Source: Patescibacteria group bacterium
GTDB taxonomy: Bacteria; Patescibacteriota; Minisyncoccia; Moranbacterales; DUUL01
Assembly: GCA_015493225.1 (NCBI GenBank)
Contig: WGDO01000032.1
Location: 1 to 58,234, forward strand
Length of the DNA: 58,234 bases
Direction of reading: 5' to 3'
Shown here: positions 2,713 to 44,513 of the stretch, one piece after another
Layout: each line of letters starts with the position of its first letter
Numbering within the stretch: position 1 is the stretch's first letter
Program-made: the position numbers and the translations under genes
Notes under the pieces: model-generated
The model's database searches: none
Told to the model about the DNA's origin: nothing
What the model saw: only the letters and a program-made list of their open reading frames with translations

Positions 2713-2805
2713 GAGCTTTTCGGGCGTTATTTTCTACCTGATGTTCGACCTCTCTTTATTTCTGGGGCGTCGAACATGCGTCCGAAAATAACGCCCGAAA
2801 AGCTC
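2713..2805. repeat. long GC-richer inverted repeat
   Basis: Perfect 22-bp arms 2713-2734/2784-2805 plus inner ATGTTCGAC/GTCGAACAT. Confidence 0.85.
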
Positions 2806-2864
2806 TCTAAATAAGGGAGTTTAGCAATTTACTTTAAATGGCTTATAATTAAGTCTATAAATAA

Positions 2865-4052
2865 ATGCTTAAAATCAAAAGTAAAAAAAAACAAAAAGTT
2901 TACCGCATTGGCATTGACGCTAGGTTCTTTGGTTTGGAAAATAAAGGACTGGGACGATATACAAATGAATTAATTAAGTGGTTGGAGAATATTGACGAAA
3001 GAATTCGAAAAGACAACCAGTCTAAAAAAATTGAATTTTATGTTTTTTTACGAAAAAATAATTTTTCTGAATATATTCCTCAAAATAAACATTTTCATAA
3101 AGTTTTGGCTGATTTTCATTGGTATTCCTTTGCAGAACAAGTCAGATTTCCTTTTTTGCTCAATAAATATAAATTGGATTTAGTCCATTTTCCTCACTTC
3201 AACGTTCCCTTGCTATACCGAAAAAAATTTATAGTAACGGTTCATGACTTAATTCTTTTTCATTATCCAACGGTGAGAAATACAACTCTAAATAAGTTTG
3301 TTTATTGGTTTAAATTATTGATGTACCATCTGGTTATTCGCTCAACCATCCGACGAAGCAACTTGGTAGTTGCCATCTCTAAATTTACGAAAAACGACCT
3401 GATAACTACTCTAAAAACACCATCTCAAAAAATAGAAGTTATCTATGAAGGAGCTGAATTTAATTTAAACAAAGAGCATAACGTCTCAGAACAACAAAAG
3501 AATACTTTTTTTAAAAAATATGGTATAATAAAACCATATTTATTATATGTTGGCAATGCCTATCCTCATAAAAACTTGGAACGGCTTGTTTTGGTTTTTA
3601 AGAGGTTGGTACAGAATGGATTTGATAAACAGCTGGTCTTGGTTGGTAAAAATGATTATTTTTATCAACGACTTAAGAAGTTTATTCAAAATAATAAAAT
3701 TAAACAGGTTGTCGTTACTGATTATGTGGATGATATTGACTTGGAGCAATTATATCAGAAAGCAGAAGTCTTTATTTTTCCTTCCTTGTATGAAGGATTT
3801 GGATTGCCACCTTTGGAAGCTTTAGGCTATGGCTTACCGGTAATAAGTTCTAATAAAAGTTCTTTGCCGGAAATATTAGAAGATAAAGTAATATATTTTA
3901 ATCCGGAAAGTAAAGAAGATATGGCGAATAGCATTTTAAAATATAATCAACAAACAAAAATAAGCAGGGTAGACATTGCTAAGCTAAAAGAAAAATATTC
4001 TTGGCATAGAATGGCTAAAGAAATTTATCAAATTTATTTGAAAGTTTTATAG
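2865..4052 (+). CDS. glycosyltransferase family 4 (GT-B)
   Basis: IGIDARF, HFPHFNVP, GNAYPHKN and FPSLYEGFGLPPLEA motifs. Confidence 0.92.
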   Translation: MLKIKSKKKQKVYRIGIDARFFGLENKGLGRYTNELIKWLENIDERIRKDNQSKKIEFYVFLRKNNFSEYIPQNKHFHKVLADFHWYSFAEQVRFPFLLNKYKLDLVHFPHFNVPLLYRKKFIVTVHDLILFHYPTVRNTTLNKFVYWFKLLMYHLVIRSTIRRSNLVVAISKFTKNDLITTLKTPSQKIEVIYEGAEFNLNKEHNVSEQQKNTFFKKYGIIKPYLLYVGNAYPHKNLERLVLVFKRLVQNGFDKQLVLVGKNDYFYQRLKKFIQNNKIKQVVVTDYVDDIDLEQLYQKAEVFIFPSLYEGFGLPPLEALGYGLPVISSNKSSLPEILEDKVIYFNPESKEDMANSILKYNQQTKISRVDIAKLKEKYSWHRMAKEIYQIYLKVL

Positions 4053-42319: not shown

Positions 42320-42482
42320 AAATTTTAAATTTTAAATTTTAAGTTTTCCAGCCTTACTGAAGTATTGACTGAGCTGTTAATGTTGTGCTAACCTTAATTT
42401 GTAGGTATAGGGTGTACATTAAAGATGGTGCTAAAATTAAATTAGCATAATCAACAAAATAATTTACAGAGGAGGAATTGGC

Positions 42483-42914: not shown

Positions 42915-43510
42915 ATGAACAAAAAGGGAAAAGCGGCAAAAAGAAAACAAGCAAAAAAAACGGAAAAATACTGCAATAAAAAGAAAAGCCGAGGTGCTTA
43001 TAACGTCGAAATCAAGATGGGTTGGCTGGATGAGGGAGAGAAGATACTCTGACTTGAAAAAGCAGCTAAGTAAAAAGTCCCTAGAAATTGTTCGGGCGAG
43101 AACATTAATTGAGGACATTGTTTTTTTTAAATGCTGGTACAGAGCCATTCGTGCGTATTGAATTATCTACGCCCAATTCTCATGTTAAAGCCCTGGATAA
43201 ACTTGTCCGGAAAAAAACATTCAAGGGGGACAATTTTGTAAATTTAGCAACCAGACAGCGTTATTCGACAAATTGTGCCTTTTCTAGAGAAAATTTATTT
43301 TTAGTTGGTTATTTATCAGAAGATGAGTATGCCGAATTTGAACGAATTTCCACAGGAGGCTCTTCATTGTCATGGACAGCAGAAGTTATTGTTTACAATT
43401 TTCCTCGTGAAAAGACTAAGATTGTCGAAGTTTATGCAGATGTTAATTGGTCTATGGACAGGGAATTGATTTCTAGGGATCTTGAAGTATATAATTTTCA
43501 GGGGTTGTAA
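42915..43510 (+). pseudogene. orphan gene apparently broken by two frameshifts at homopolymer runs
   Basis: SD GGAGG and ATG 42915; +1 shifts at the A-run (42953-42960) and T-run (~43120-43128) join three open frames through to 43510. Confidence 0.4.
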
Positions 43511-43583
43511 AATATCTTATGGCAGTTTTATGGCGATGTTTATTCGAGTATTTCCTATTGGGTGAATATCGTCTTTTTTATCC

Positions 43584-43612
43584 TTGATATTTCTTTCAAA
43601 GTAGGCTATTAT
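43584..43612 (+). promoter_or_regulatory. sigma70 promoter of the putative ncRNA
   Basis: TTGATA-N17-TATTAT; predicted start ~43619, exactly where the structured region begins. Confidence 0.65.
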
Positions 43613-43618
43613 AAAACC

Positions 43619-43812
43619 AATCTCGGGTGGAATGGCACAGAACCACCCAATTAAGAGATAAAGTGCCATTGACTCATCGGTTTTGTACGAATCCTTAAGT
43701 AGCGGCGAGCGAACGGGGTATAAATCTCTAAGTAGCGGCGAGCGAATGGAGATAGATATGTACAAACACAACTAACAAGTTGTGGGACAAACGTTCACCG
43801 ATGAGTTTTTTT
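43619..43812 (+). ncRNA. putative novel structured ncRNA with pseudoknot and two 23S rRNA helix-13-like hairpins
   Basis: Multiple nested stems, 8-bp pseudoknot, duplicated TAAGTAGCGGCGAGCGAA, closing 11-bp stem followed by a T-tract. Confidence 0.72.
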
Positions 43813-43897
43813 GTTTTTAAAATCAAGATATTATAAATGGGATTATGCGACAAAAAATCTTTATGGGTCGCCATCTATAATTGCTGGCATAAATAGC

Positions 43898-43925
43898 ATA
43901 CAACTATTCAATTGAATAGTTGTAT
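43898..43925. repeat. perfect 28-bp palindrome ATACAACTATTCAATTGAATAGTTGTAT
   Basis: Upstream of the ArsR-like gene; identical cores at 44348-44383 and 44486-44513. Confidence 0.95.
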
Positions 43926-43998
43926 AACTTAATAAACTGTGTTATGATAATAAACCAATTTACTATTGGTAAGTTTATTATTAAGATAAAATATTGTC

Positions 43999-44277
43999 AT
44001 GAAGAACAAAATCAAAAAAAGCAATCAATTGGATTATATTGTAAAAGGTTTTGCAAATAAAAGAAGAATTGATATTATTTTTCTCTTAGAAAAATATCCG
44101 GAATTATCAGTATCGGATATTGCTAAGCATTTTAACATTAGTTATACGGCAGTATCTAATCATTTGTTAAAGATGATGAGCAGAGGAATAGTAATGAAAC
44201 GAAATGATAAATCGGAGGTTAGGCATGCTTTAACCAATAAAGGAAAAGCAATTGCTAACTTTCTATCAAAAATATGA
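43999..44277 (+). CDS. ArsR-type winged-helix DNA-binding protein
   Basis: FANKRRIDIIFLL, LSVSDIAKHF, AVSNHLLKM..RGIV. Confidence 0.85.
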   Translation: MKNKIKKSNQLDYIVKGFANKRRIDIIFLLEKYPELSVSDIAKHFNISYTAVSNHLLKMMSRGIVMKRNDKSEVRHALTNKGKAIANFLSKI

Positions 44278-44347
44278 AATAATTTTTTTATCACAATTGT
44301 TAGATTAACATCCGGTGATTTATGCTCAATTATTTGGAATTGTGTCG

Positions 44348-44513
44348 GACTATACAACTATTCAATTGAATAGTTGTATAGTCGTATTTATATTTAAGCT
44401 TAGGATGGGATAAAAAGTGGGAGATACAAATTATCTCCTGTAGCACTGATCAACTATTCAATGTATACAATCATTCATTTAATATATACAACTATTCAAT
44501 TGAATAGTTGTAT
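44348..44513. repeat. two more copies of the palindrome plus a half-site
   Basis: 36-bp perfect palindrome 44348-44383, 28-bp copy 44486-44513, half-site CAACTATTCAAT 44451-44462. Confidence 0.95.

Follow-up and report, generated by a model that had tools for sequence, protein, structure and literature searches.

A predicted small RNA with two tandem hairpins resembling 23S rRNA helix 13, and a recurrent hairpin module in small RNAs of a Patescibacteria order

What might two tandem copies of one helix of 23S ribosomal RNA (rRNA) be doing outside any rRNA operon? The question is raised by a locus in a Patescibacteria group bacterium of the order Moranbacterales (GenBank assembly GCA_015493225.1), on a stretch of 58,234 nucleotides (nt; contig WGDO01000032.1, positions 1 to 58,234 of the forward strand) that we refer to as the window. 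By comparing and folding sequences, we show that positions 43619-43812 (+) of the window hold a predicted stand-alone small-RNA gene of ~190 nt, and that its putative product is the two-module variant of an undescribed small-RNA family with a patchy distribution in the order. The module, a hairpin resembling helix 13 (H13) of 23S rRNA, is a recurrent component of several predicted small RNAs of the order. An initial annotation of this DNA had named the sequence elements of the RNA, and direct inspection found every one of them in its place:

43584-43612 (+): promoter-like site TTGATA-N17-TATTAT, from a promoter scan (10/12 matches; a consensus match only)
43619-43812 (+): predicted small RNA of ~190 nt, from the fold z-score and the null result in Rfam, its ends placed by the promoter-like site and the U-tract
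43620-24 / 43655-59 (+): 5' outer stem ATCTC/GAGAT, from sequence
43625-43648 (+): 5' hairpin GGGTGG/CCACCC (strands 43625-30 / 43643-48) with the 12-nt loop AATGGCACAGAA, from sequence and fold
43631-38 / 43663-70 (+): putative pseudoknot strands AATGGCAC / GTGCCATT, 8 Watson-Crick pairs, the second strand 25 nt downstream
43671-81 / 43797-807 (+): long-range closing helix of 11 base pairs (bp), GACTCATCGGT / ACCGATGAGTT, from sequence and fold
43682-88 / 43760-66 (+): arm TTTGTAC/GTACAAA, which holds both H13-like hairpins, from sequence and fold
43691-43719 (+): H13-like hairpin 1, closing stem ATCCT/GGGGT, core 43698-43713, from sequence and the Rfam large-subunit (LSU) rRNA alignment
43724-43753 (+): H13-like hairpin 2, closing stem ATCTCT/GGAGAT, core 43731-43746, from sequence and the Rfam LSU alignment
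43767-43784 (+): hairpin CACAACT-AACA-AGTTGTG (strands 43767-73 / 43778-84), from sequence and fold
43785-43796 (+): short hairpin GGAC/GTTC (43785-88 / 43793-96), 4 pairs only and without comparative support
43806-43812 (+): T7 tract overlapping the end of the 3' strand of the closing helix, a likely intrinsic terminator, from sequence

The plus strand of 43619-43812 has a minimum free energy (MFE) of -58.5 kcal/mol (z -4.00), a value that none of 200 dinucleotide shuffles equalled, and the MFE structure includes the closing helix, all three arms and the 5' stems; the opposite strand folds less well (z -2.64). This fold, together with the lack of other rRNA sequence nearby, bears out the proposal that the locus specifies a structured RNA that stands alone, outside any rRNA operon. 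Identical 18-mers at 43696-713 and 43729-746, with a period of 33 nt (repeat family D5), lie within the two H13-like hairpins, whose closing stems differ in sequence and nevertheless each pair. With regard to the ends of the transcript, a promoter scan gave 11 promoter-like sites in the region versus 6.6 +/- 2.6 in shuffles, and because the region is so rich in such sites, the one at 43584-43612 is by itself weak evidence. Comparable sites lie 50-90 nt upstream of the H13 core at several related loci. The closing helix and U-tract were missed by our terminator scan because its loop limit is 8 nt. On geometric grounds, the full 8-bp pseudoknot may be unable to coexist with both 5' stems (ATCTC/GAGAT and GGGTGG/CCACCC), the outer stem and the pseudoknot perhaps being alternatives.

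The element appears to be neither a known RNA nor a misplaced piece of an rRNA gene. Scanning the whole window against Rfam 15 at gathering score returned two tRNAs and nothing else, and a scan of 43450-43950 with E-values up to 10 returned nothing above 20 bits, so that the claim of no match to an existing Rfam family stands at both levels. ARAGORN found no transfer-messenger RNA (tmRNA) in the window and nothing at any related locus. An independent Logan contig spans 42000-43926 with 0 differences and uniform depth; it derives from the probable source DNA run, hence from the same sample, and informs on the assembly only. The runs listed for this stretch comprise that DNA run and no RNA run. 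Since one contig of flat depth spans the element, an assembly chimera with rRNA reads, which the initial annotation had named as a way to refute it, is disfavored.

Several observations identify the two hairpins as faithful copies of H13, as had been claimed. Both align, weakly, to the LSU_rRNA_bacteria model of Rfam, at model positions 236-263 and 237-262 (14.5 and 10.9 bits). The sole other match to the element in its genome at E < 0.01 is the genome's own 23S gene on contig C6 (30 nt, 90% identity), where the matched segment is helix 13; the match covers positions 77-106 of the query and stops at the base of the hairpin, and no contiguous 23S similarity beyond this single helix was found for the window element. 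The 16-nt core agrees with the genome's own 23S at 15/16 positions and with the common bacterial form at 16/16, the difference being core position 6, which is T in the genome's own 23S and C in both window copies. No third copy of the core was present in the genome within 3 mismatches. The window hairpins keep the closing-stem register of 23S H13, with an unpaired flanking pair.

Surveys of related genomes corrected the initial picture in that the RNA is not unique: the H13-like hairpin recurs in several small RNAs of the order, usually once in each. A BLAST search of 40 relatives with the 203-nt element gave a match in 13/41 genomes (the query genome, G000, counted) at 15 places, namely the query itself, 13 matches of its H13 part to 23S genes, and one match of hairpin 2 to contig C11 of G020. 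This last locus is an intergenic RNA that ends in a terminator and carries a single H13-like hairpin. A homologue of the whole element, extending beyond the H13 part, was found neither by BLAST in the 40 relatives nor in the phage collection. When we searched the order for the core pattern, allowing C or T at position 6, 218/319 genomes matched, and the reversed pattern gave 0 matches in every listed genome. We inspected the genomes with at least two core matches together with the listed single matches of the C variant. A further 87 matches were unlisted, and since only multi-match genomes were resolved among these, the following counts are lower bounds. The exact core occurs outside 23S genes at no fewer than 17 loci, in at least 16/319 genomes of the order (families f1, f2, f5, f6, f7 and f9), where by our own arithmetic ~0.3 chance matches are expected. 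All 17 loci carry the C variant, most 23S genes of the order carry the T variant, and none of the 17 matched an Rfam family, a tRNA or a tmRNA.

We built a covariance model of 36 nt from 19 hairpin copies and ran it on 151 of the 319 genomes. The relaxed model, together with BLAST within one family, added five variant-core members (in G148, G016, G024, G316 and G076), whose cores differ by one letter or by a one-nucleotide deletion in the loop. Hairpin 2 of the window RNA scores 43.0 bits with the hairpin covariance model R1. Two false leads also emerged from this relaxed work, an LSU contaminant of eukaryote-like type and an ordinary 23S gene. The contig of locus L112 (G031:C160) bears the apparent 5' end of a eukaryote-type LSU rRNA and is probably contamination of the genome bin. 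Likewise, the core match L062 belongs to a second rRNA operon and not to a small RNA, and a weak L20_leader match at L059 (27.9 bits, E 0.23) was taken as chance. A class-level core search of 401 genomes could not separate small RNAs from 23S genes, and we drew no count from it; in other orders, the 23S carries the same core followed by A.

A separate search for the tandem two-core pattern returned three stretches in genome_contigs and two in metagenome_contigs, all five of them within 23S genes (the first three assigned by Rfam, the other two by eye from their flanks). At these loci (L021, L022, L023, L049 and L050), which belong to two rRNA operons of a SAR324 metagenome-assembled genome, an Amycolatopsis scaffold and two metagenome contigs, the H13 region is duplicated in tandem, and the duplications could be either genuine local events or assembly artefacts. 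Another 23S gene (L056; G179:C19, ~2786-3199) carries 413 inserted nt at the tip of a helix near LSU model position 1750-1775, and this insertion includes an exact H13-like hairpin closed by a stem of its own; a group I intron lies downstream in that gene.

The exact core also occurs in viral contigs. Because the 20 exact matches there are about what chance and 23S contamination of the collection would give, only copies with good stems count. In L091 (14830-14845), the copy is closed by a stem of 7 bp and follows a tRNA-His gene at a distance of 25 nt, in a tRNA array that includes tRNAs with a CTA anticodon; in L099 (6843-6858), the closing stem is 10 bp long. The copies in L097 (7968-7983) and L100 (5323-5338) have tRNA genes within ~600 nt. 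In L090 (971-986), L096 (175-190) and L098 (145-160), the hairpin sits in a region that by eye is tRNA-like (a T-arm-like GGTTCGAATCC and a paired, acceptor-like end), in which neither ARAGORN nor Rfam called a tRNA.

The hairpin forms, its closing stem showing strong covariation. In an alignment of 19 ungapped copies (A1), 81.6% of the cells in the six-pair closing stem and two core pairs are paired, as opposed to 27-42% when the partner columns are slid by one to three positions. The covariation score of A1 is 0.627 versus 0.199 +/- 0.042 in shuffles, none of 500 of which scored as high. Of the closing pairs, the inner four form in 19, 18, 17 and 14 of the 19 copies, each with 4-6 pair types. 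The core consists of a bulged-G module (AGUA/GAA), then two G-C pairs, then a GNRA-like loop. Its two G-C pairs are invariant in the 19 aligned copies as well as in the five variant-core members, whose cores change at positions 1, 3, 7 or 8 or lose one loop nucleotide; the deletion variant, L113, has a clean 4-nt GCGA loop. Taken together, the sequence constraint on the core appears to exceed what the structure requires.

The RNAs that carry the hairpin are diverse. An all-versus-all comparison with the core masked resolved at least four classes without other similarity, plus singletons, and the window RNA fell into none of these classes. Seven single-hairpin RNAs from families f1, f6 and f7 (L048, L051, L063, L065, L110, L111 and L113) share the layout of the window RNA, and we refer to the eight together as class A. 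In this layout an 8-position helix encloses the hairpin, with its 5' strand 10-46 nt before the hairpin and its 3' strand running directly into a U-rich tail. Over the eight RNAs, 61/64 cells of the helix are paired, the window RNA having all 8 pairs, and double changes occur at positions 1, 4 and 8 (U-A/C-G) and at position 6 (G-C/A-U). The strands were found with degenerate motifs written post hoc, on which pairing between the strands was not imposed; membership of class A is thus partly circular, because the motifs were written after the sequences had been seen. GCTT precedes the 3' strand in 7/8 members, the window RNA having GTTC there, and the class A combination of GCUU before the 3' strand with an A-rich stretch upstream is not seen in the window RNA. 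Only the window RNA has two H13 modules, the other members of class A having one. Relatives thus exist, with compensatory changes in the hairpin stem and the closing helix and, more weakly, in the pseudoknot.

The proposed 5' pseudoknot fared in a mixed manner. In the window RNA, 8 pairs can form between the 5' hairpin loop and the last 12 nt before the closing strand, a number reached in only 2/2000 shuffles, and the same loop-to-linker topology is available in L113 (50/2000 shuffles) and L061 (102/2000). Loop-linker runs in L065 and L110 were not above chance, nor were the short runs in L048, L051 and L063, and L066 and L111 had no 5' hairpin under the criteria used. An unrestricted search for the longest complement (80 x 16 nt, in AT-rich DNA) was not significant for the window (115/1000 shuffles). 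The topology recurs in part of the family, and we regard the pseudoknot as plausible and not established.

Two further groups of hairpin-bearing RNAs have features of their own. L059, L060 and L064 (in G093, G044 and G312) form a separate class of ~330 nt with one H13-like hairpin near the 3' terminator. By eye, the extreme 5' end could pair with the loop of the second hairpin, and its letters covary among the three members, hinting at a 5' pseudoknot. The class C RNAs (L055, L057, L058 and L080, genus g63, and L053) lie between the convergent 3' end of secA and a divergent gene for a NUDIX hydrolase, and in the second hairpin G153 differs from the others by compensatory changes. In genus g63, 4/10 genomes carry a class C RNA. 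We considered the NUDIX gene as a shared partner of these RNAs and rejected it as local synteny within one family.

From these comparisons we derive a plan for the family. A promoter-like site is followed by a 5' hairpin, the loop of which may pair with a linker immediately ahead of the main domain to form the pseudoknot, and then by a long-range closing helix of 8-11 bp that runs into the U-tract and encloses an arm and 0-3 further hairpins. The enclosed arm is capped by the hairpin bearing the 16-nt H13 core. In the window RNA, the H13 hairpin has been duplicated in tandem with a 33-nt period, with closing stems that differ and yet both pair.

What might such a hairpin be for? We tentatively favor the possibility, whose likelihood we put at not quite even, that it serves as a portable handle for a factor that recognizes H13 in 23S rRNA, with the ribosomal proteins bL35 and bL28 as first candidates and with the window RNA as a bivalent member of the family. 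The small RNA would serve as a carrier or a sink for that protein or for some other H13-specific factor, and the window RNA would bind two copies of it. As for the output, a free ribosomal protein might be buffered, or a ribonucleoprotein with a different task might form, among other possibilities. We favor a binding handle because the G-C pairs are invariant, the hairpin is found in unrelated scaffolds, copies occur in an rRNA insertion and in viral contigs, and the hairpin is duplicated in the window. The choice of candidates draws on E. coli. There, a pocket at the exit site of the 50S subunit is made up of the H13 and H21 tips together with the base of H88, bL35 contacts H13 at multiple points, and bL28 lies beside H13 at the same site (PMC13372681). 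The same source reports that an antibiotic contacts G248-C249 and that deletion of C249 is tolerated and confers resistance (PMC13372681); G248 and C249 correspond to loop positions 8 and 9 of the 16-nt core. Bulged-G modules are often associated with protein binding, according to a second study (PMC7247131).

A number of points weigh against this proposal. Apart from the core and the closing helix, nothing in the window RNA is detectably similar to any relative, and the tandem small-RNA form is seen nowhere else in genome_contigs and metagenome_contigs. The distribution is patchy, with ~21 genomes known among 319, of which 151 were searched with the relaxed model, and the RNA is present in 0/2 genomes of the same genus, both 86% complete. 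The exact-core set was collected by searching for the core, and members that came by other routes vary; because most members were found in this way, the invariance of the core is partly a matter of ascertainment. Much of the conservation of the core is demanded by the fold itself, and a bulged-G module with a GNRA-like loop is also a generic device for RNA-RNA docking. The contacts of bL35 and bL28 come from E. coli and not from the Patescibacteria lineage. Finally, the putative promoter is a consensus match only, in AT-rich DNA.

The potential for docking leads to the main alternative, which we consider rather unlikely and yet take seriously: the hairpin would be an RNA-only structural module that docks within the same RNA or stabilizes it, its link to the ribosome being one of motif ancestry only, and the RNA would act through another part. 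The letters of AGUA/GAA are required by the bulged-G fold itself, and the loop variants stay GNRA-like, including the GCGA loop of L113. The 5' hairpin, pseudoknot and closing helix could then be the business end. This account has difficulty with the two G-C pairs, which never covary even though the adjacent closing stem varies freely, and with the tandem duplication, which is more easily understood as a gain in binding valency than as an internal dock. Moreover, the same hairpin occurs in at least four dissimilar classes of RNA, in a 23S insertion and in viral contigs, and its presence in such unrelated settings argues for an autonomous function of the hairpin.

The remaining explanations depend in part on the setting of the RNA gene, which required correction. 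In G001 (same genus), G005 and G020, the gene for an M16 peptidase is followed directly by that for an AI-2E transporter; in the window, the two are separated by a strain-specific insertion, which has no second copy in the genome:

42320-44640 (no strand assigned): insertion of ~2.3 kb holding the RNA gene, delimited by comparison with G001, G005 and G020

On this island, 186 nt beyond the RNA, an open reading frame (ORF) at 43999-44277 (+) specifies a 92-amino acid (aa) winged-helix protein of the ArsR/MarR type. Upstream, 42916-43510 holds a gene related to the 198-aa ORFan P0002 (84% identity) that is apparently broken by two frameshifts, both in homopolymer runs (a T run near 43120-43128, and in or near an A run at ~42955). 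A 133-aa ORF of the island has one relative, P0002, which itself has no Pfam or PADLOC family and no usable Atlas hit, and which was not found in the other 318 genomes of the order.

The RNA could also be pictured as a decoy or immunity element that offers a false H13 to a toxin, nuclease, modifying enzyme or peptide, be it specified by a linked toxin gene or brought by a phage or a competitor; we think this distinctly improbable. In its favor, the window copy lies on a strain-specific island, the arrangement of tandem repeats ahead of a terminator is reminiscent of type III antitoxin RNAs, the distribution is patchy even within a genus (4/10 genomes of g63), and copies are found in viral contigs. 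The tip of H13 is, in addition, a proven antibiotic contact at G248-C249, with resistance by deletion of C249 (PMC13372681). Against this picture, no toxin-like gene lies near the RNA: the island ORFs match no toxin family in Pfam or PADLOC, PADLOC giving generic winged-helix matches for the downstream regulator and nothing for the other ORFs, and the 198-aa-type gene is an ORFan in a broken state. The relatives carry one hairpin and have no common gene neighbor, no ORF family being common to more than 4 of 17 loci. Because the antibiotic pocket needs H21 and H88 besides H13, a lone hairpin would, we infer, be a poor decoy.

The position of the RNA on the same strand as the regulator gene, 186 nt upstream, also brings to mind a cis-acting leader, in which binding of a factor would stabilize the closing helix and terminator and so gate read-through into the ArsR-type gene at 43999-44277. 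Protein-dependent attenuators, the ribosomal-protein leaders of Firmicutes among them, are built in this way, with a closing helix leading into a U-tract. We nonetheless hold this to be very unlikely. The regulator gene has 28-nt palindromes of its own on either side, and these resemble operators; the next long ORF (117-920 aa) is convergent, within ~200 nt of the U-tract, in 10/17 related loci; the copy in G020 lies antisense between two plus-strand genes; and no ribosomal-protein gene was found downstream at the loci examined.

That the element might have no function, as a relic or an artefact (a fragment captured from 23S, an assembly chimera, or a decaying piece of the island), is suggested by the broken protein gene of the island and by the failure to find a close homologue of the whole RNA. 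This is hardly credible in view of the independent contig of flat depth, the end of 23S similarity exactly at the hairpin base, the C variant of the core where the genome's own 23S has T, the two copies with different closing stems that both pair, the fit of the closing helix to the family consensus with compensatory changes, and the fold z of -4.0. A highly divergent housekeeping RNA such as signal recognition particle (SRP) RNA or 6S RNA has next to no likelihood, in spite of an internal loop, short stem and GNRA-type loop that loosely recall SRP domain IV, of RF00169 finding SRP RNA in 0/151 genomes of the order and of RF01854 and 6S matching nothing in 5 genomes, since the small RNA occurs in a minority of genomes only, its four-way junction does not fit 6S RNA, the Ffh M domain was found in 0/27 genomes of the family so that a partner for SRP RNA is not evident, and tmRNA (C24:49977-50399) and RNase P RNA (C87:36469-36902) lie elsewhere in the genome.

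The SRP searches also bear on the lineage itself. Motif searches of the genome for an SRP-like domain IV gave no match, although the first of them may have been too strict to be informative. Neither RF00169 nor RF01854 matched in the window or genome, and PF02978 was not found in the genome. In controls, RF00169 matched in 12/14 genomes, RF01854 in 9/14 and PF02978 in 14/14, compared with 0/151 (RF00169, order), 0/5 (RF01854) and 0/27 (PF02978, family) here. Either the RNA-binding module of SRP has been lost or has strongly diverged in this lineage, or it was missed by our first-look filter.

How does a binding handle, the reading we favor, compare with known systems? Mimicry of rRNA is already known from cis-acting ribosomal-protein leaders (L20, L1, S8 and S15), which are likewise non-ribosomal RNAs that copy the rRNA site of a ribosomal component; here the mimicry would occur in stand-alone small RNAs. 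A bulged-G module has been proposed as an rRNA mimic for archaeal eL15 (PMC7247131). The leaders sit in the 5' untranslated region of the gene for the bound protein and resemble rRNA loosely, whereas the window RNA stands alone, unlinked to ribosomal-protein genes and followed by an ArsR/MarR-type ORF, and matches 16/16 core letters twice over. Relative to helix 13 of 23S itself, the core is the same, and the small RNAs lack flanking 23S sequence and have closing stems that differ in every copy.

Among protein-sequestering small RNAs, CsrB/RsmZ, with repeated GGA hairpins, and 6S RNA are similar in that they stand alone with their own promoter and terminator and present copies of their protein's natural RNA or DNA target. 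The present RNAs differ from them in mimicking an rRNA helix, in having for the most part a single module per RNA, and in having a partner that is only a candidate. In the 23S-methyl RNA motif of Lactobacillales, an Rfam family with a probable link to 23S biology, two similar tandem hairpins and a terminator lie upstream of rRNA methyltransferase genes; the window RNA shares the tandem hairpins and terminator and has no match to this family at gathering score or with E up to 10. Type III antitoxin RNAs (ToxI-like) consist of tandem repeats of ~33-36 nt, a terminator and then a gene. The window RNA has instead two repeats within a larger fold, with a winged-helix gene where such systems have an endoribonuclease toxin gene downstream of a repeat array, and its relatives have a single hairpin.

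The best analogy is the kink-turn (K-turn), which archaeal L7Ae binds in rRNA and in many small RNAs. As with the K-turn, one module is common to at least four RNA scaffolds, an rRNA insertion and viral contigs; it differs in being a bulged-G hairpin instead of a K-turn, in occurring in bacteria, and in having a protein that is only a candidate. By extension of this analogy, the H13 hairpin could be a bacterial counterpart of the K-turn/L7Ae system, an rRNA-derived handle that recruits bL35 or bL28 to unrelated small RNAs, an rRNA expansion segment and phage RNAs in Patescibacteria, and the two-module window RNA could be a sponge by which the pool of free protein, and through it the assembly of ribosomes, is coupled to an accessory island. 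We regard this wider scheme as doubtful.

A full-text search for the 16-mer and topical searches by title and abstract, which did not extend to supplementary files, found no published description. A family of stand-alone small RNAs with a letter-perfect copy of an rRNA helix is therefore, as far as our searches of Rfam 15 and the literature reach, undescribed. Should the hairpin bind an H13-specific protein, it would provide a handle on how minimal, host-dependent bacteria manage a ribosome component, a natural, ready-made affinity tag for that protein, and a recurrent RNA module to seek in other genomes and phages. The family already yields ~20 sequences for a covariance model.

The surroundings of the RNA gene hold repeats of their own. 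Three perfect 28-nt palindromes (ATACAACTATTCAATTGAATAGTTGTAT) bracket the winged-helix gene, at 43897-43926, 44348-44383 and 44486-44513, and are probably its operators. The palindrome is otherwise confined to the island, apart from weak matches at C67:2726-2749 (3 mismatches) and on C13 (82-84% over 37-44 nt). Its half-site, ACAACT...AGTTGT, also forms the hairpin of the small RNA at 43767-43784 and the similar hairpin of the G020 relative (TACAACT...AGTTGTA). Between the first two palindromes (43897-44365), Logan depth is 157, as compared with 328 and 336 in the flanks, and the regulator gene may be present in only part of the population. At the opposite end of the island, directly after the M16 peptidase gene, 42320-42347 is an AT-rich repeat resembling AAATTTTAAATTTTAAATTTTAAG, with dozens of copies in the genome, and is possibly a common post-gene element.

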